DNA of 64,000 nucleotides from Candidatus Kaiserbacteria bacterium RIFCSPHIGHO2_01_FULL_54_36 (GTDB taxonomy: Bacteria > Patescibacteriota > Minisyncoccia > Phycocordibacterales > UBA2100), in assembly GCA_001781105.1 (NCBI GenBank), contig MFKV01000007.1, positions 4,912 through 68,911 on the forward strand, read 5' to 3'. Each line of letters opens with the position of its first letter. Position 1 is the first letter of the stretch. Both the position numbers and the translations under genes were made by a program. Below the pieces are notes generated by a model. The model did not search any database, had not been told where the DNA came from, and was given only the letters and a program-made list of their open reading frames with translations. Positions 31,637 to 63,744 of the stretch are shown piece by piece.

Positions 31637-32587
31637 ATGGCAGCCTCAGCTATCGCAGTACAGAACATCCAGAAATCATACGGTAATGTCCATGCGTTGC
31701 GCGGAATTGATCTCGAAGTAGAGAAAGGTACCATTCTCGGCCTCCTCGGGCCCAATGGCGCGGGCAAGACCACCTTGGTGCGTATCCTCACGACCTTGCT
31801 GCAGCCAAGCGGCGGAAGTGCATGGGTAGAGAGTTTTAATGTCGTCAAAGATGCGGCATATGTGCGCCAGCTCATCGGTCTCGCTGGCCAGTATGCGGCA
31901 GTCGATGAAAACCTGACTGGACGAGAGAATTTGATAATGGTAGGGAAGCTTTACCATCAAACGCTTCGCGAGGCGGCGGCGCGGGCGCACGAGCTCCTCG
32001 TGCAATTCGGCCTCGAAGACGCTGCTGATCGCAGGCTCAAGACCTACTCCGGTGGCATGCGCCGCCGCCTCGACCTCGCAGCATCATTAGTCAACAAGCC
32101 GCCCGTGCTTTTTCTTGACGAGCCAACGACCGGCCTTGACCCCGGCAGCCGGCTTGCACTCTGGAAAATAATCCGCGACCTGGTGCGCGACGGCACAACG
32201 GTACTCCTCACAACGCAATACATGGAAGAGGCTGATCATTTGGCAGATCGGATCATCGTGATCGACAAAGGAAAGATCGTCGGGAGTGGCACGCCAGCGG
32301 AGCTCAAAAGAATGGTCGGAGGCGACGTCCTTGAGATCCACCTCGTTGATCCATCACGCACAGCAGACGCTGCGATCGCGTTGCGCTCGCTTGAGAACGG
32401 AGCGATCGAAATTGATGCCGAGCAGGGGATCCTCAGGATGCCTGTCGAAGACGGGACGGGAACCTTGCCCAAGGCGATCCGCGCGCTCGATATTTCGCAC
32501 ATTGCGATCGTAGACCTCTCGCTTCGTCGACCGACGCTTGATGAAGCTTTCTTGAAACTGACCGGCCACCGCGCCGACATGATGTAA
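31637..32587 (+). CDS. ABC transporter ATP-binding protein (DrrA-like)
   Basis: Walker A GPNGAGKTT, signature LSGGMRRRL, Walker B LLFLDEPT. Confidence 0.9.
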   Translation: MAASAIAVQNIQKSYGNVHALRGIDLEVEKGTILGLLGPNGAGKTTLVRILTTLLQPSGGSAWVESFNVVKDAAYVRQLIGLAGQYAAVDENLTGRENLIMVGKLYHQTLREAAARAHELLVQFGLEDAADRRLKTYSGGMRRRLDLAASLVNKPPVLFLDEPTTGLDPGSRLALWKIIRDLVRDGTTVLLTTQYMEEADHLADRIIVIDKGKIVGSGTPAELKRMVGGDVLEIHLVDPSRTADAAIALRSLENGAIEIDAEQGILRMPVEDGTGTLPKAIRALDISHIAIVDLSLRRPTLDEAFLKLTGHRADMM

Positions 32588-32589
32588 AT

Positions 32590-32725
32590 ATGCCCGGCAG
32601 GACAATTTCGAATTGCTTTGTATGAATATTCATCAACGTATGAAAGAAAGACTAACCAATGATTTTTGCAAAACGTTCGCAGTTGAAACTGCAGCAGGAA
32701 TTATTCGAAATTGTACTAGCCGGGT
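32590..32725 (+). mobile_element. MITE-like intergenic repeat, copy 1 (136 nt, imperfect ~22-nt terminal inverted repeats)
   Basis: Starts ATGCCCGGCAGGACAATTTCGAAT 2 nt after the ABC ATPase stop. Ends ATTCGAAATTGTACTAGCCGGGT, immediately followed by the permease ATG. Confidence 0.7.
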
Positions 32726-33526
32726 ATGAACAAGCAACTGAAACGCTGGAACCCATGGTGGACACTTACTGACCTCCTCACGATGGTGGAGCGCAACATC
32801 ACCGGCTATCGCCGGGTGCCGCAGCTCCTTATCTTTTCTACCATTCAGCCAGTCATGTTCCTTTTGCTTTTTACCTATGTCTTCGGAGGCGCGATCCGCA
32901 CCGGCGGGAGTAGCTCGTACATCAATTATCTTTTGCCTGGTATCCTTGCGCAAAGTGCGGTCTTCGGAGCGATACAGACGGGTGTGGGCCTCACCGTGGA
33001 TCTCTCACGGGGACTCATCGATCGTTTCCGCTCGCTGCCGATGGCACGAAGTGCCGTCCTTTTGGGCCGCACGATCGCAGACATGCTGCGTAATGTGTTC
33101 GTGATACTCCTCATGCTCCTCGTGGGCTACCTGATAGGTTTTCGACTGGAAGGTACGATTTCAGACGCCGTCTCTGCGATCGCGATCCTGCTTCTCTTTG
33201 GTTTTGCCTTCTCCTGGGTCTCGGCCTGCATCGGCATGGTCGTCAAGAATACAGAGACAGCACAGGTCGCCGGATTCATCTGGGTATTCCCACTCGTTTT
33301 CGCAAGCGCCGTTTTCGTCCCCGTCGAATCTATGCCCGACTGGTTGCAGCATTTTGCAAAGTGGAATCCGGTGACGATCACAGTGAATGTAGTGCGCGCG
33401 CTTCTTCTAGATTCTTCGAGCGCGCAAGACACCGCCACGTACGCGTGGGAAGCACTTGCCTGGATCGCGGTCATACTCATCGTCTTCATGCCTTTGGCAA
33501 TTTGGCTGTATCGCAAAAGTGAATAA
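32726..33526 (+). CDS. ABC-2 type transporter permease
   Basis: Six TM segments and ABC-2 family architecture, directly downstream of the ATPase. Confidence 0.8.
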   Translation: MNKQLKRWNPWWTLTDLLTMVERNITGYRRVPQLLIFSTIQPVMFLLLFTYVFGGAIRTGGSSSYINYLLPGILAQSAVFGAIQTGVGLTVDLSRGLIDRFRSLPMARSAVLLGRTIADMLRNVFVILLMLLVGYLIGFRLEGTISDAVSAIAILLLFGFAFSWVSACIGMVVKNTETAQVAGFIWVFPLVFASAVFVPVESMPDWLQHFAKWNPVTITVNVVRALLLDSSSAQDTATYAWEALAWIAVILIVFMPLAIWLYRKSE

Positions 33527-33669
33527 GCCGGGTGTGCCCGGCAGGACAATTTAGCATAGCTTTTGTCGTGGCCTAGTTCGTACAGCGTTATATCTATTTC
33601 GGTCTCCGGAAATGTAACGTACCGCGAATATCCTGCAGCAGAGACCATGCCAAATTGTACTAGCCGGGT
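33527..33669 (+). mobile_element. MITE-like intergenic repeat, copy 2 (diverged interior, conserved ends)
   Basis: Begins immediately after the permease stop with GCCGGGTGTG-CCCGGCAGGACAATTT. Ends CCAAATTGTACTAGCCGGGT followed by GTG. Confidence 0.6.
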
Positions 33670-33718
33670 GTGCATACTGCCGTTCCCAACAGGGGGGCAG
33701 TTTGGTATTCTTCAGCCC

Positions 33719-33925
33719 ATGTCAGATGACGAGTATCAGGACGATCCCACGCTCCCGCGATTTATAAATAGATTCATCGGCCTCTCCGAGCGCCTGCTCG
33801 CCTCACAAAAGAGCGCCAACCTCTTGATCATCGTGCTTATCCTTCTCACCATTATTCCGGCATTCGGCGTTGGCATACTCGTGACGCGTCTGGCGGCACC
33901 TCACCCAACACAACAATCCAATTAA
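33719..33925 (+). CDS. possible small single-TM protein
   Basis: MSDDEY...LLIIVLILLTIIPAFGVGILV. Weak RBS. Confidence 0.3.
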   Translation: MSDDEYQDDPTLPRFINRFIGLSERLLASQKSANLLIIVLILLTIIPAFGVGILVTRLAAPHPTQQSN

Positions 33926-50440: not shown

Positions 50441-51412
50441 ATGACACGCACGAGCGTCGGCATTTTGCGCGGCGGGACATCGAGCGAATACAACCTCTCG
50501 CTCAAATCCGGCGCTGCGATGATGGCGGCGCTTCCTGAGGATCGCTTCGACACGCGCGATATTTTCATAGACAAGCGAGGGTACTGGCACATGAGAGGCC
50601 AGCCCGTGGACGCTGCCCGCGCGCTTTCGCAAATTGACGTCGTTCTCAATGCACTTCACGGCGGAGTGGGCGAAGATGGCACAGTACAGCGCATCGTGGA
50701 GCGCGCGGGCGTCGCTCACGCCGGCGCCTCACCCCTTGCCTCGGCCATTGCCCTAAATAAGATCCGCGCTCGCGAGATCTTGCAAAGAGCTGGCATTCGT
50801 ATGCCACGCGCTGTCTCATTTTCATTGAACAATGACCTCGACACCGGAGAGATGGCACGTTTTGTGTTCTCCCAATTTGGCCCGCCGTATGTCGTGAAGC
50901 CCGCAAGCGAAGGTGCATCATTTGGCATCCGGATCGCCATGACGCCGCTCGAATTACCCGATACCTTGGGTGACACGCTCGATGCATATGGCTCCGCGCT
51001 CGTCGAAGAATACATGCGCGGGCAAGAGGCGAGCGTGGGCGTTATCGAGAATTTCCGCGGAGAAGATCTCTACGCGCTTCCGCCGGCGCACGTCATCGCT
51101 CCCGAGGGCGCTTGGATGCTACACCCGATCCATCACGAAGAGGGAACGTTACGCCACCTGGTCCCGAGCCAATTTTCCCACTCGGAGAAACAGGCGCTTG
51201 CCGACCTCGCGCGCGCGGCACACCGCGTGCTCGGCCTCGGGCATTTCTCTCGCGCTGACATCATCCTCACCCCGCGTGCCCCGTACCTTTTGGAAATGAA
51301 CGCCATACCCGGCCTTTACCCAGGCGCATCATTCCCGCCAATGCTCGAATCGGTCGGCTCCTCCGTGCGCGAATTCCTAGAACATGCTATAAGTCTTGCG
51401 AAGGGTAGATGA
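50441..51412 (+). CDS. ddl: D-alanine--D-alanine ligase
   Basis: ATP-grasp fold with the Ddl N-domain and conserved E..G.E...N motifs. Confidence 0.9.
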   Translation: MTRTSVGILRGGTSSEYNLSLKSGAAMMAALPEDRFDTRDIFIDKRGYWHMRGQPVDAARALSQIDVVLNALHGGVGEDGTVQRIVERAGVAHAGASPLASAIALNKIRAREILQRAGIRMPRAVSFSLNNDLDTGEMARFVFSQFGPPYVVKPASEGASFGIRIAMTPLELPDTLGDTLDAYGSALVEEYMRGQEASVGVIENFRGEDLYALPPAHVIAPEGAWMLHPIHHEEGTLRHLVPSQFSHSEKQALADLARAAHRVLGLGHFSRADIILTPRAPYLLEMNAIPGLYPGASFPPMLESVGSSVREFLEHAISLAKGR

Positions 51413-51454
51413 GAGGGGTCAGCCCCCGTCACCAGAAAAGCTCTTGTGATTTGT

Positions 51455-51706
51455 ATGCACTACGTGTATCTTCTCAAGAGTGAGAAAGACGGTCTGCTGT
51501 ATATTGGTTATACAAATGATCTGAAAAGGCGTTTCGCGGAGCACAACAGTGGCCTCAGCAAGGCAACAAAACCGAGAGCACCTTTTCAGCTCGTTTATTA
51601 CGAAGCATACAAATCACGGGCTGATGCATTGTTTAGAGAGAAAAATCTGAAACGATACTCCAGAAGCTATCAAGAGTTGAAAAAGCGAGTAAAGGGTAGC
51701 ATCTAG
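51455..51706 (+). CDS. stand-alone GIY-YIG nuclease-domain protein (second paralogue)
   Basis: VYLLKSEKDGLLYIGYTNDLKRRFAEHN motif. Confidence 0.7.
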   Translation: MHYVYLLKSEKDGLLYIGYTNDLKRRFAEHNSGLSKATKPRAPFQLVYYEAYKSRADALFREKNLKRYSRSYQELKKRVKGSI

Positions 51707-51722
51707 AGCTTTTCAGGTGAGG

Positions 51723-51794
51723 GGGCCAGTAGTTCAGTGGTAGAACGTCTCATTTGCAATGAGAAGGTCGGGGGTTCGATTCCTCTCTGGTCCA
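51723..51794 (+). tRNA. tRNA-Ala (anticodon TGC)
   Basis: Manual cloverleaf: acceptor GGGCCAG/CUGGUCC with the G3:U70 alanine identity pair, anticodon loop TTTGCAA, T-loop TTCGATT, discriminator A. No encoded CCA. Confidence 0.8.
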
Positions 51795-55030: not shown

Positions 55031-55396
55031 ATGAAATACGCGGCACTCCTCGGATGGGGTATTTGTATATATGCGGTCATGACGCTCGCATGGGCAGGGA
55101 TCGCGCTCTATGGGCTCGGAGGCACATTGACCGGCCGTATACTCGGGCTCATTGTGCTCATAGTCACGCTCACTATCGCCGGGCGCTCGCTCAAATTCCA
55201 TTCGTGGAAAGACATCGTGCCATATTCGCTGCTGTGGGTCGTCATCATGGCCTTATTTGACGCGGTCTATAGCGTGCCGTTTGGCGGGTGGGGGATCTAT
55301 GCCGATTGGAACTTGTGGGTGGGCTATGCGCTCGTGGCGGCAGTCCCGATGCTTGCACCCCTAACGAGAATAGTGCCAGACGGGAGCAGGGCCTGA
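55031..55396 (+). CDS. hypothetical 4-TM membrane protein
   Basis: Hydrophobic profile only. Its stop TGA is immediately followed by MITE-like copy 3. Confidence 0.45.
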   Translation: MKYAALLGWGICIYAVMTLAWAGIALYGLGGTLTGRILGLIVLIVTLTIAGRSLKFHSWKDIVPYSLLWVVIMALFDAVYSVPFGGWGIYADWNLWVGYALVAAVPMLAPLTRIVPDGSRA

Positions 55397-55397
55397 C

Positions 55398-55534
55398 ATG
55401 CCCGGCAGGACAATTTCGAATCGCCTTGTATGAATATTCACCAGCGTGTGATGGAAAAAAGTGCGACAGTTATTTTGCAAACCAGAAATAGTCGAATCTG
55501 CGGCAGGAATTATTCGAAATTGTACTAGCCGGGT
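55398..55534 (+). mobile_element. MITE-like intergenic repeat, copy 3 (137 nt)
   Basis: Starts ATGCCCGGCAGGACAATTTCGAAT and ends ATTCGAAATTGTACTAGCCGGGT, followed by the ATG of the next gene. About 85% identical to copy 1. Confidence 0.7.
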
Positions 55535-56689
55535 ATGCGCTCGCTCGCACTTCACAGGTTCCTTTTACGCTTCGCACTCGCGGGGGCAAATGTCTTTGCC
55601 TGGATATTCATATTTCAATTTTTCTACCTCATCGAGCCCGATATCGGGCACGCGCTCGCGCGCGTCGCGCTGCTCTACGCGCTTTCGCAGGTGATCACCT
55701 GCCTTTTGACGCCCTATGCCGTGCAAACGCTCCGCGACGGAGCCCGCCCGCTTTTGCTTATCGCCGTTCTTTTCGCGTCGTCTGCGCTGGTCCTTCTTGG
55801 AGGCACCTTCGCAGCGTATTGGAATGCTTCTTACGCGTCGGTGGGTATCGCGGCGTATGCTATAGCGCTTGGCGCGTACCGTGCGTTCTATTTCGTCCCG
55901 TATGAGATAGAAGTGCGTGGGAATGCTAAGCGACCCCGCAGCAGATCCGCAGCTTCGGAACTTCTCATCGCTCTCGCACCGTTCATCGCAGGCATTTTTA
56001 TTGTAAGCACAACACATGGCCCCGTCTGGGTCTTGTATATAGCCGCCGGGCTCATTGCGCTTTCCGCTATCCCACTGCTATACCTGCGCGATATACACGA
56101 AGGCTTTACTTGGGGGTATCGCGAAACGTTCGAGCGACTTTTCCTTCCGTCGCATCGCCCGCTCCTTCGCGAGGCCATTATGGAGGGAATTTCAGGCGCG
56201 GCGTTGCTCCTCTTCTGGCCTATCGCCGTGTTCCTCATTGCAGGATGGTCATATGGGATGGTCGGCATAATTCTCTCACTCACCTTTCTCATCGCGATCC
56301 TGGGCCGCAAACTTGTGCGCAGAGGTATCCGCCGAGCCGGTTTACATCGATCACAGATCCTGAACGCGACCTTCGCCGCCACTCCATGGTTGTTCCGCAT
56401 CGTCGTCGGCAACCCGTTGGGTGTCATATTTGCCGACTCGTATTTCTATACGACGACGCCCCGGCGCATAGGCGTTGATGCCCTTGTATTCGAGCAGGCC
56501 GCCGACGCAGGCTCATACGTGGATGAATACACTGCGCTGAAAGAGATGGGGCTAGCGCTCGGAAGGATCGCGGCATGTATCCTCGTTGCAGTGGTTTCTC
56601 TCTATGTATCGCTCCCGATCGCGCTCGTCGCAGTATTTCTCTTGGCAGCACTCGCCTCCGTCGTCGTCGCTCTGCGCCCGCGTTCATAA
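55535..56689 (+). CDS. hypothetical polytopic membrane protein (about 10-12 TM, transporter-like)
   Basis: Hydrophobicity pattern. Its start codon is supplied at the end of the repeat. Confidence 0.5.
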   Translation: MRSLALHRFLLRFALAGANVFAWIFIFQFFYLIEPDIGHALARVALLYALSQVITCLLTPYAVQTLRDGARPLLLIAVLFASSALVLLGGTFAAYWNASYASVGIAAYAIALGAYRAFYFVPYEIEVRGNAKRPRSRSAASELLIALAPFIAGIFIVSTTHGPVWVLYIAAGLIALSAIPLLYLRDIHEGFTWGYRETFERLFLPSHRPLLREAIMEGISGAALLLFWPIAVFLIAGWSYGMVGIILSLTFLIAILGRKLVRRGIRRAGLHRSQILNATFAATPWLFRIVVGNPLGVIFADSYFYTTTPRRIGVDALVFEQAADAGSYVDEYTALKEMGLALGRIAACILVAVVSLYVSLPIALVAVFLLAALASVVVALRPRS

Positions 56690-58033: not shown

Positions 58034-58189
58034 CGCTGTTTCTCCCTGATTGCGTTCCCCGATGTTGGGTGTACAGCCCGCGATTTTTCTTGTGTGAGTC
58101 TGCGTCAAACGCTAACAGTCGAAAGATGAACGAATTATGAATTATTTAGTGGATAAAACAGCAGAGTAGCGGTGTGATAGAATCCGCAC

Positions 58190-59230
58190 ATGGAATGGCT
58201 CGTGATCGCACTTCTTGTGGCAAATTTGGCGCTCTTGGCGTTCCTTTTTATGCGCAAACCTGCTGCACCCCTACAAGATCAGAGTGGGATGATTATGTTG
58301 CAGCAGCAGATGCAGGATCTTTCAAAGACACTCGACGCGCGAGTCGCAGAATCTTCAAAAACCATGCAAGAGAATTCTCATCGGCAATTCTCTGAGTCCG
58401 CTCGTCTTATTAAGGAAATCACCCAAGAAGTCACTTCGGTAAAGGAGATCGGGAGACAGACGGGAAAATTTGCTGAGCAACTTCAAAACTTACAAGATAT
58501 CCTCAAGAACCCGAAACAACGTGGCATCCTCGGCGAATATTACCTCGAGACCGTGCTCAAAAATGTCCTCCCTCCCGGCATGTACCAAATGCAGTACCCC
58601 TTCAAAAACGGCGAGATTGTCGACGCCGCCGTCTTTATCAACGAGAAAATTGTCCCTATCGATTCCAAGTTCTCACTTGATAACTACAACCGTCTTGTCC
58701 ATGCTCCCGATGCGGAGAGACCTGCATTTGAAAAAGCTTTCGTGAACGATCTCAAGCTTCGCATTCAGGAAACGGCTAAATACATTCGACCAGAGGAGAA
58801 TACAATGGACTTCGCCTTCATGTTTATCCCATCGGAAGGTATCTATTACGATTTGCTCACCAATCAGGTGGGTGCAGGCGAGGAAGAAAACCTTATCCAA
58901 CGTGCGGCCGGGAAGTACAAGGTCATCATTGTTTCGCCGACGTCATTCCTAGCCTACCTTCAGACGGTCATGCAGGGCTTAAAGGCTCTTCAAATAGAGA
59001 AACGCGCCGAAGAGATCCAAAAGCGTATAGGTGAACTCGTTAAACACATCGAATCCACGAACTCTTTCTATATAAAATTAGGTGCGGCGCTTGTAACTGT
59101 TGTATCTCATTATAATTCTGGCCACAAAGAACTTGCAAAAATCGACAAGGACGTTTATCGGATATCAGGTGACAGGGCAGAAGTTGAGCCCATCCTTCTA
59201 GAGAAGCCCAACCTCTCAATCGACGATTAA
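58190..59230 (+). CDS. rmuC: DNA recombination protein RmuC
   Basis: N-terminal TM helix, coiled-coil, and RmuC nuclease-like C-domain. Confidence 0.85.
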   Translation: MEWLVIALLVANLALLAFLFMRKPAAPLQDQSGMIMLQQQMQDLSKTLDARVAESSKTMQENSHRQFSESARLIKEITQEVTSVKEIGRQTGKFAEQLQNLQDILKNPKQRGILGEYYLETVLKNVLPPGMYQMQYPFKNGEIVDAAVFINEKIVPIDSKFSLDNYNRLVHAPDAERPAFEKAFVNDLKLRIQETAKYIRPEENTMDFAFMFIPSEGIYYDLLTNQVGAGEEENLIQRAAGKYKVIIVSPTSFLAYLQTVMQGLKALQIEKRAEEIQKRIGELVKHIESTNSFYIKLGAALVTVVSHYNSGHKELAKIDKDVYRISGDRAEVEPILLEKPNLSIDD

Positions 59231-60664: not shown

Positions 60665-60671
60665 ATATATG

Positions 60672-60761
60672 CCAATCTACGAATCATACGAATTCTACGA
60701 ATAACTACAAATGAACTACTATTCGTAGCCATTGGTAGATTGGAATTCATTTGTAAATTGG
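60672..60761 (+). repeat. composite inverted-repeat unit A (~90 nt) filling the recR-dnaB intergenic gap
   Basis: Ends CCAATCTACGAAT ... ATTTGTAAATTGG are inverted repeats. Internal 9-mers TCTACGAAT and ATTCGTAG are reiterated in both orientations. Confidence 0.65.
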
Positions 60762-62160: not shown

Positions 62161-62241
62161 TGGTCCATCCTATCACGGTCGACTTTCCACGTTGCCGTGA
62201 GGCCGGGTCTAATATGTGTCTTTCGTGGGGACAATGAAGTC

Positions 62242-62337
62242 CTAATCTACGAATCATACGAATTCTACGAATGTCTACAAATTCGCGTGTATTTCATTCG
62301 TAGCTATTCGTAGATTGGCATCCATTTGTAGATTCGG
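62242..62337 (+). repeat. composite inverted-repeat unit B, upstream of dnaB and of the divergent HTH gene
   Basis: 29 nt identical to unit A (AATCTACGAATCATACGAATTCTACGAAT), then the same 9-mer motifs. Confidence 0.65.
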
Positions 62338-63447: not shown

Positions 63448-63539
63448 GTTCCAATCTACAAATAACACCAATCTACCAATGGCTACGAATAGTGGCTCAT
63501 TTGTAGTTATTCGTAGTATTCGAATGATTCGTAGATTGG
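63448..63539 (-). repeat. composite inverted-repeat unit C (reverse-complement orientation), immediately after the HTH gene stop
   Basis: The reverse complement is about 90% identical to unit A over ~90 nt. Confidence 0.65.
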
Positions 63540-63744
63540 TACATGCTAAAATTAGCATGTGATCCATGAACACGAACAGACCGGTATCACGAGCGGGTCG
63601 AGATTGAAAGGATCATTTCTTGGCCCCCTTTTTAGTTTCAATCTACACTCGTTCGTAGACGACTTTTGGGGCAATGGGTGGGGTATTTCCCGATGCCTCA
63701 TTCTGAGCATCATTTTCTGGGGACTTTTTGCAGTCCTTGGGAAC

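Follow-up and report, generated by a model that had tools for sequence, protein, structure and literature searches.

Several families of miniature inverted-repeat transposable elements (MITEs) in bacteria are co-transcribed with the genes that flank them, including the Correia/NEMIS elements of Neisseria, the ERIC/IRU elements of enterobacteria and the RUP elements of pneumococcus. Here we examine a repeat that resembles them, present in three copies in a 64,000-nt stretch (hereafter the window) of contig MFKV01000007.1 from Candidatus Kaiserbacteria bacterium RIFCSPHIGHO2_01_FULL_54_36. Like these families, the repeat is 100-150 nt long, has inverted ends and short flanking duplications, and occurs in many intergenic copies within operons, where it would form a long mRNA hairpin. 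The known families, by contrast, originate from or are mobilised by DDE insertion sequences, insert at TA or AT-rich sites and lie in both orientations, whereas the Kaiserbacteria repeat very probably goes back to a cassette encoding a GIY-YIG nuclease, occupies start codons, always facing the same way, and carries reading frames adjusted to the host ATG. We assign a probability of roughly 0.68 to the explanation we prefer overall, namely that the repeat is a MITE-like relic of an element that hijacks start codons, tolerated through translation of the element followed by reinitiation on the host gene.

Other described systems share some of these features. Selfish GIY-YIG nuclease genes that sit between host genes and are co-expressed with them are represented by the T4 seg/mob genes and by relatives of I-TevI. 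Free-standing homing endonucleases, however, carry DNA-binding domains (~250 aa), recognise one long cognate site, have neither inverted ends nor a target duplication, and move only between alleles, whereas the product of the element described here is a catalytic domain of 99 aa and nothing more, inverted ends and a duplicated ATG frame its gene, and its derivatives are spread over more than 60 loci. We therefore rejected assignment to the homing endonuclease genes, given more than 60 unrelated loci with a duplicated target and a nuclease lacking a DNA-binding module. IS200/IS605 elements and their PATE derivatives are likewise very small, with structured ends, an orientation fixed by a short sequence and miniature derivatives, but they rely on an HUH transposase (TnpA), form a separate hairpin at each end and leave no target duplication, in contrast to the single end-to-end inverted repeat and co-varying flanks seen here. 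Introns and inteins offer an analogy only, as selfish insertions in essential gene regions that are silenced by a built-in rescue of expression; the rescue proposed here would act at translation, by termination and reinitiation at a duplicated start codon, rather than by RNA or protein splicing.

In both sequence and fold, the encoded nuclease is best matched by the UPF0213 proteins BH0048 (1zg2) and EF2693 (1ywl), which consist of the same minimal domain without the C-terminal Asn. A phylogenomic study from 2006 described minimal prokaryotic SLX1-like proteins as vertically inherited, with a predicted role in repair (PMC1564403); the nucleases considered here differ from that account in being bounded by inverted repeats that encode their N- and C-termini and in behaving as mobile DNA. 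In open-access papers and preprints we found neither GIY-YIG cassettes with inverted ends nor start-codon targeting nor a translational relay described, and an earlier description elsewhere is possible. On a conservative view, the three copies in the window could be classed as a variant of MITE, and the parent element is the part without precedent in the searchable open literature.

A dispersed family on start codons

A search of the window that tolerated up to three mismatches returned exactly three occurrences of each end motif of the repeat, TGCCCGGCAGGACAATTT and AAATTGTACTAGCCGGGT (0.16 and 0.04 occurrences expected from shuffled sequences), at spacings of 99, 99 and 100 nt in copies 1, 2 and 3. 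All three copies are on the + strand and are bounded by near-invariant imperfect inverted ends (Table 1), with the interior of copy 2 ~63% identical to that of copy 1. An earlier note on this DNA had placed three MITE-like copies here, as this search and the sequence itself confirm, and had held that a lack of further copies and of empty sites would make a local segmental duplication more likely. Neither is lacking: there are ~61 host loci and five presence/absence differences between related genomes.

These loci come from a scan of GTDB species genomes in which both ends were required (at least 29 loci) and a scan of metagenomes in which only the right end was required (87 loci). After deduplication, we count 72 distinct short copies, with cores of 131-138 nt, across more than 10 metagenome-assembled genomes (MAGs). 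Most loci in the genome scan belong to Candidatus Kaiserbacteria RIFCSPHIGHO2_01_FULL_53_29, a MAG with at least 20 copies, and the remainder to other Kaiserbacteria and Patescibacteria MAGs. The left end, which the right-end-only scan left unconstrained, is invariant in 71-72 of the 72 short copies. Open reading frames (ORFs) inside short copies span 11-47 codons, are not conserved in sequence, and in no case reach the length of a transposase. A profile search with nhmmer over ~260 kb returned intact copies only, with no degraded or partial ones, and viral contigs gave no matches to the element. Against Rfam 15, the window yielded only two tRNAs at gathering thresholds, and the interval 32560-33720 had no match at E <= 1.

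The position of the copies relative to genes is highly regular. T+ATG follows directly after 70 of the 72 short copies, that ATG opens at least 40 codons in 68, and the short copies always share the orientation of the downstream gene (binomial p ~1e-15, 61 sites). Genes directly downstream include rplB, rplV, rplX, ftsZ, pgk, a class II aminoacyl-tRNA synthetase and an asparagine synthase, the last of which needs Cys as its first mature residue, so that the position of its start codon is fixed. Since essential genes lie directly downstream, insertion must be compatible with their good expression. In the window, copies 1 and 3 lie at a gene start, whereas the GTG noted earlier behind copy 2 (33670) opens just 19 codons and the next real gene probably starts at ATG 33719, 7 nt behind its own -10 box (TGGTATTCT); copy 2 is thus one of the rare copies away from a start codon.

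Insertion duplicates the ATG of the host gene

To the left of the 72 short copies, the flanking bases read TATG in 46, CATG in 15, (T)ATGA in 5, TGTG in 2, TAAG in 2, and ATGG and TATC in one each. The deviant flanks are often paired across the element, such as TATC/TATC (L017), TGTG/TGTG (copy 2 of the window) and ATGA/ATGA, and an ATGA or ATGG flank matches host base +4; this co-variation argues for a target duplication. At position -1 of the target, C stands on the left and T on the right (CATG and TATG) in 15 copies, and A or G never occurs there. The best parse of these flanks would be a target of pyrimidine+ATG and a duplication of ATG (ATGA/ATGG in six copies), with the T at the 3' end belonging to the element. 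Alternative parses fared less well: a 4-bp TATG duplication as the sole parse is disfavoured by the 15 CATG-left/TATG-right copies, a TA duplication of the IS630/mariner type was rejected as it would render the ends asymmetric, and an IS200/IS605-like insertion 3' of TATG by an element bringing its own TATG is disfavoured by the co-variation of left and right flanks.

Presence/absence differences between related genomes were found at five sites (filled/empty: L022/L026, L028/L008, L020/L017, L008/L028 and L002/L028). In the clearest case, the empty site in L026 reads CGCCTATGAAAAC, and its filled counterpart in L022 reads CGCGTATGA, the element, then TATGAAAGG. The repeat thus does not donate the start codon of the downstream gene, as had been supposed, but duplicates the host's own ATG. 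At the other sites, the orthologue of the filled L028 site reads ATAGACATATGGCA in L008, that of the filled L020 site reads GGTCATGAAAAAA in L017, and two copies of Kaiserbacteria MFKT01 have no counterpart in L028. Other insertions are shared between genomes: copy 1 of the window is orthologous to a copy in L021 (MFKT01), whose flanking genes have ~76% DNA identity, and copy 3 to copies in L019 (MFKT01) and L030 (MFKY01). Because the flanking genes of shared insertions have only 64-77% DNA identity, some insertions must be old.

A further locus, L032 (- strand, ~431 of the reversed locus), has a right end alone (TAAATTGTACTAGCCGGGT, then ATG), placed directly between stop and start codons; the left end is missing, and the remnant looks like the footprint of an element lost by deletion.

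A longer form encodes a GIY-YIG nuclease

Four right-end matches had no left end nearby, and in three of them a left end lay 303-304 nt upstream. Copies of 303 bp, in L082, L085 and L115, have ends identical to those of the short copies and contain a GIY-YIG ORF. The inverted ends of this parent form are imperfect and ~22 bp long (CCCGGCAGGACAATTTCGAAT ... ATTCGAAATTGTACTAGCCGGG). In L082 and L085 a single intact ORF fills the element; it opens at the left duplicated ATG and closes at a TAG within the right arm, reading ATG CCC GGC AGG ACA ATT TCG AAT (MPGRTISN) at its start and AAT TCG AAA TTG TAC TAG (NSKLY and stop) at its end, after which come CCGGGT and the host ATG, such that the TAG lies 6 nt before the host start.

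The 99-aa product matches PF01541 (GIY-YIG) with 62.8 bits against a cut-off of 22.6 (E = 4e-17), and among PDB entries matches 1zg2 (3e-12), 1ywl (5e-11) and SLX1 (6e-6 or weaker). Its predicted structure (mean confidence, pLDDT, 74) is closest in fold to 1zg2 and to Slx1 nuclease domains, with template-modelling (TM) scores of ~0.6 and root-mean-square deviations of 1.6-3 Å over 71-78 residues; both termini, which are encoded by the inverted ends, are disordered in the prediction. Residues Y14, Y25, G27, R35, H39, E59 and E71 are invariant in 36 homologues, and the conserved Tyr, Tyr, Arg, His and Glu positions are presumably the catalytic ones. Dozens of 99-aa homologues with 65-99% identity retain the termini MPGRTISN...NNSKLY. 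By these matches, the protein is a minimal prokaryotic GIY-YIG nuclease of the SLX1/UPF0213 type, its activity being predicted.

Short copies share with the long form their first ~30 nt and their last ~65 nt, and have in common an interior that the long form does not contain, which indicates that a single deletion derivative gave rise to them all and spread in its short form. Very probably, then, the repeats arose by deletion from a GIY-YIG cassette with start codons as its target. The family displays every MITE hallmark that we tested (inverted ends, small size, duplication, dispersed polymorphic copies, and a longer coding element with the same ends), so that the MITE assignment of the earlier note was right as far as it went; what it left out is the 303-bp GIY-YIG cassette from which the repeat derives and the tuning of its frames to the host ATG. 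No element longer than the GIY-YIG form was found with these ends in the 877 kb of DNA examined. The GIY-YIG gene is the sole ORF of the parent, with no transposase of the DDE, HUH, serine or tyrosine classes, and we lean slightly toward the nuclease being the mobility enzyme. The nearest known structures are those of structure-specific nucleases (SLX1), which would fit recognition of hairpin ends and provides a lead.

Reading frames lead through the element to the host start

Most operon-first genes of the window are preceded by an extended -10 box (TGnTAnnnT) whose end lies 6-8 nt from the ATG, Shine-Dalgarno motifs are almost absent (examples in Table 1), and leaderless mRNAs appear, from these start regions, to be the rule in this Kaiserbacteria genome. 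Of 75 element copies, 52 have a same-strand stop codon at most 20 nt upstream of the left ATG, usually at 1-5 nt and with a Shine-Dalgarno-like motif in 3 cases, and 10 have TAnnnT 6-9 nt before it and look leaderless. The left ATG therefore retains a native initiation context. No ribosome-binding signal accompanies the right ATG, which lies at the base of a 21-bp stem. These features speak against the suggestion that the repeat serves as terminator plus translation-initiation region: the element contains no terminator-like U run, and its right arm makes a poor promoter or ribosome-binding region, with a TACTAG that lacks the -7 T and no Shine-Dalgarno motif.

What the element does offer is a set of reading frames that depends on its length, measured from the A of the left ATG to the A of the right. 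At 136 nt (the type of copy 1), an ORF of 11 codons runs to the TGA of an internal GTATGA, whose overlapping ATG opens a second ORF that reaches the ATGA at the host start. At 137 nt (the type of copy 3), the same relay puts the second ORF in the host frame, and termination falls on the right-arm TAG, 6 nt short of the ATG. At 135, 138 or 141 nt, the first ORF leads straight to the right-arm TAG, and where the left ATG is already in the +1 frame (mostly 137 nt, including copies with an extra A), it leads straight to ATGA. Of the 69 copies with a left start codon, 61 offer a complete path that begins at the left ATG and reaches a stop at either -9 (TAG) or +1 (ATGA), compared with 11.2 expected for shuffled interiors. 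Weighting by interior cluster gives 13.9 of 18 observed vs. 3.4 expected (clusters at 65-70% identity; thresholds of 60-62% lumped nearly everything and were uninformative). In reverse orientation the element would read ATG CCC GGC TAG, a dead end.

The frame of arrival is furthermore tied to the host sequence. Copies whose path arrives in the +1 frame are followed by ATGA (host base +4 = A) in 25 of 26 cases, compared with A at +4 in 6 of 36 in-frame arrivals (Fisher p = 2e-10 by copy and 2e-9 by site), and diverged interiors stay open for 42-47 codons. We see no explanation for the link between frame and base +4 except selection, which would act on translation passing through the element and ending at the host start.

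Assembled into a mechanism, these patterns suggest that a parent of ~303 bp, carrying only the nuclease gene, would insert at a host ATG preceded by a pyrimidine and duplicate that ATG. The left ATG would keep the host context, i.e., a stop codon 1-5 nt upstream (coupling) or TAnnnT 6-9 nt upstream (leaderless initiation), and would start the ORF of the element, which is the nuclease in the long form and short relay ORFs in the short form. This ORF would stop beside the right ATG, either at the right-arm TAG (TAC TAG CCG GGT ATG) or at a TGA overlapping the host start (ATGA), where ribosomes could for that reason reinitiate on the host gene. We consider it probable that such translation with reinitiation keeps the host genes expressed. 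More speculatively, a staggered cut at the ATG followed by ligation would yield the duplication, the precise empty sites and the fixed orientation.

Weighing the explanations

The reading of the repeat as the relic of a start-codon-hijacking element is built on the family, its ends and their pairing, the start-codon position, the duplication, the empty sites, the parent ORF and the frame statistics, and several points weigh against it. Passage of ribosomes through the element with reinitiation, and mobility driven by the nuclease, are both deduced from sequence. The path is broken in 8 of 69 copies, with stops 85-93 nt before the host ATG, and a long-form subfamily (P0008, P0010 and L115) has its ORF stop 27 nt before the host ATG, so tight proximity of stop and start is not obligatory. 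Part of the open frame could have been inherited from the ancestral coding sequence, an account that fails for the +1 frame and for the diverged interiors, and the uniform (100%) orientation could result from a directional insertion mechanism instead of selection. We know of no GIY-YIG enzyme that acts as a prokaryotic transposase, and the 99-aa catalytic domain comes without an obvious DNA-binding module. Finally, the strong stem with its compensatory changes, described below, is left unexplained by translation and points to an additional requirement on DNA or RNA structure.

One alternative is that of a purely selfish MITE with no built-in compensation, in which translation of the host gene would begin independently at the right ATG and the open frames would be ancestral leftovers. 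The derivation of the short copies from coding sequence is in keeping with this, as are the apparently intact genes behind the 8 broken paths and the persistence of copy 2 in the window without a gene start. Such an element would, however, leave unexplained the contrast at base +4 (25/26 against 6/36), the openness of the diverged interiors, and how an ATG without Shine-Dalgarno motif at the foot of a 21-bp stem is found before ribosomal protein genes, and we regard this alternative as unlikely.

A second alternative is suggested by the secondary structure. In the folding check that the earlier note suggested, the + strand forms a closed hairpin in all three copies of the window, more stable than shuffled sequences (z = -5.3, -3.8 and -3.5 for copies 1, 2 and 3). 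The terminal stem comprises 21 bp interrupted by one bulge and one mismatch and hardly varies among 71-72 copies; the asymmetry of its arms consists of a bulged A and a G·A mismatch and gives the right arm its in-frame TAC TAG. Compensatory double-sided changes occur at six pairs, in the terminal stem and in an inner 3-bp helix specific to the short form. The hairpin could accordingly be an RNA processing site (e.g., for RNase III), where cleavage would leave the downstream cistron with little or no leader and so restore an mRNA of the leaderless type. The long, nearly perfect stem, the good folding of the + strand and the six compensatory pairs, including those of the short-form-specific helix, would all suit such a role, leaderless starts are in use in these genomes, an RNase III gene is present (L118), and the Correia elements of Neisseria are RNase III substrates. 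The same stem is, however, the inverted repeat of a DNA element, and processing would explain neither the association of frame with base +4 nor the orientation. Strand-specific selection on RNA gained no support, as counts of G·U vs. A·C pairs gave no asymmetry, and the pairing may act at the level of DNA (through enzyme recognition or a cruciform) or of RNA. Processing is in our estimate improbable as the primary explanation; it could coexist with translation through the element.

A third possibility, that the right arm is an outward promoter whose TACTAG-N6-ATG mimics the native leaderless TAnnnT-N6-8-ATG and drives the downstream gene, draws on the spacing from TACTAG to ATG, which equals that of native promoters in the window, and on the asymmetry of the arms, which falls exactly within the TACTAG hexamer. 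It is very improbable: TACTAG lacks the -7 T present in every native -10 box of the window, an extended -10 would have its TG elsewhere, a -35 element is missing, the 52 of 75 copies inside operons have no need of a promoter, and the hexamer is better explained as the Tyr codon and stop of the nuclease ORF. The comparison with native -10 boxes led us to reject a right-arm promoter as the main function. A local segmental duplication or an integron-like attC array, which three copies in one window, each between a stop and a start codon, might recall, is refuted by more than 60 unrelated loci in more than 10 genomes, the absence of GTTRRRY/RYYYAAC cores (ends are CCCGGC / GCCGGG in all copies), housekeeping neighbours including ribosomal protein operons, and the flanking duplication and empty sites.

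Implications

Taken to its full extent, the reading as a start-codon-hijacking element leads to a tentative proposal, which we would hold to be somewhat doubtful as a whole, that no autonomous DNA transposon smaller than the 303-bp parent is known and that, in prokaryotes, it represents the first transposon class to depend on a nuclease of the GIY-YIG (SLX1-like) kind. The ATG would be cut with a short non-palindromic stagger, resulting in directional insertion and precise excision, and the parent would borrow the start codon and initiation signals of its host and return the ribosomes by termination and reinitiation. By extension, many minimal UPF0213/GIY-YIG proteins in bacteria would then be selfish elements rather than repair enzymes.

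If correct, this would extend prokaryotic transposition to a further class of enzyme, encoded by an element that scarcely exceeds its own inverted repeats in size, and would reveal a new route to harmless parasitism, in which an element lands on the one trinucleotide common to all genes, duplicates it, uses host initiation and hands the ribosome back. It would also re-label very common small hypothetical GIY-YIG genes and intergenic repeats in genomes of the candidate phyla radiation (CPR). The frames and start contexts further provide sequence-level evidence that leaderless or coupled initiation and reinitiation may dominate in Kaiserbacteria, organisms that cannot yet be grown alone. Recognising the short copies improves annotation in any case, since they break assemblies and generate false ORF calls.

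Anatomy of the window copies

Table 1 Features of the three repeat copies and their surroundings in the window
Feature	Position	Strand	Remarks
ABC ATPase gene stop (TAA)	32585-32587	+	upstream of copy 1
Copy 1, left target duplicate (T)ATG	32589-32592	+	host's original start-codon position, 2 nt past the ABC ATPase TAA; same direct repeat family-wide
Copy 1, core CCCGGC...GCCGGGT	32593-32725	+	133 nt, non-autonomous short element
Copy 1, terminal stem arms	~32593-32613 and ~32703-32724	+	
Copy 1, relay ORF 1	32590-32625	+	MPGRTISNCFV and stop; left ATG to TGA of internal GTATGA
Copy 1, relay ORF 2	32622-32729	+	35 codons; ATG overlaps ORF 1 stop (ATGA); ends at TGA overlapping the permease ATG (ATGA, 32726-32729)
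ABC-2 type permease	32726-33526	+	host gene after copy 1; ATG is the right target duplicate
Permease stop (TAA)	33524-33526	+	
GCCGGGTGTG, putative remnant	33527-33536	+	GCCGGGT (33527-33533) and GTG (33534-33536), directly after permease stop
Copy 2, core	33537-33669	+	TGTG on both flanks; diverged interior; broken ORF path; GTG at 33670
Stop (TGA) of upstream 121-aa gene	55394-55396	+	before copy 3
Copy 3, left duplicate (C)ATG	55397-55400	+	1 nt past upstream TGA
Copy 3, core	55401-55534	+	134 nt
Copy 3, relay ORF 1	55398-55433	+	MPGRTISNRLV and stop
Copy 3, relay ORF 2	55430-55528	+	in frame with host gene; ends at TAG of TACTAG (55526-55528), 6 nt upstream of host ATG 55535
384-aa membrane protein	55535-56689	+	host gene after copy 3; no Pfam match
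Example starts with TGnTAnnnT upstream	4002, 29528, 60766	-	
Example starts with TGnTAnnnT upstream	8828, 20161, 33969, 50441, 55031, 58190	+	

The GCCGGGTGTG that directly follows the permease stop has the same sequence as the right junction of copy 2 (33663-33672); probably it is what is left of an earlier tandem copy at this site. The tandem origin proposed earlier for this left junction is made plausible by the right junction, which recreates the target site, and by the solo right end in L032.

ORFs called on the opposite strand of the repeat are artefacts, as had been supposed, and the peptide they share (HTRLVQFRIIPAA) is a reverse-complement translation of the right arm. Such mis-annotation affects ORFs 32633-32953 and 33127-33675 on the opposite strand, and gene callers also extend a small ORF (33647-33925) into the right arm of copy 2, from an ATG at 33647 inside the element.

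Diverged relatives and other cassettes

Diverged relatives at four loci show the same layout with co-varying ends. Their ends are CCCGGTAGGAC...GTACTAACCGGGT then ATG TGC in L134, CCCGGTAGTACAACTTTAAAT...ATTTAAAGTTGTACTAACCGGGT then ATG in L124, CCCAGTAGTACAACTTCGAG...CTCGAAGTTGTACTACTGGGT then ATG in L125 (marine), and CCTGTAGTAGAATTTTGAC...GTCAAAATTTCACTACGGG then ATGA in L129. In L118 and L134, the Shine-Dalgarno motif of the host now precedes the left ATG, i.e., the nuclease ORF. In L118-L123 (1501-2494), a full-length GIY-YIG cassette lies directly before the RNase III gene (rnc), with the host GGAGG before the nuclease ORF; this position is probably coincidental, yet relevant to the processing of the hairpin by RNase III considered above.

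The window additionally contains a separate stand-alone GIY-YIG gene (51455-51706, +; 83 aa, PF01541 E = 1.6e-18, 54% identity to the element nuclease), with a 323-aa gene (50441-51412) on one side and a tRNA (51723-51794) on the other. An inverted repeat of its own that matches at 13 of 15 positions (CCAGAAAAGCTCTTG at 51432-51446 and CTAGAGCTTTTCAGG at 51703-51717) encloses the gene, which probably represents a different family of the same kind of cassette. Together with L129, it hints that inverted ends and a duplicated ATG may be general among bacterial UPF0213 genes.

A second repeat family, rich in TACGAAT/ATTCGTA (e.g., CCAATCTACGAATCATACGAATTCTACGAAT...ATTCGTAGCCATTGGTAGATTGG), occurs in the window at 60667-60743, 62239-62330 and 63468-63544 and in L028 at ~30-145, with recR, dnaB and sigma-factor genes as neighbours. 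The gap from stop to ATG that holds the GIY-YIG-derived element in L002 is filled in L028 by a related element of ~115 nt. Elsewhere in the window, an RmuC-family gene (58190-59230) has 95% DNA identity to its MFKT01 counterpart (window 58174-59230 vs. L019 6786-7842), compared with 68-80% for its neighbours, which suggests a recent exchange or conversion of that single gene.

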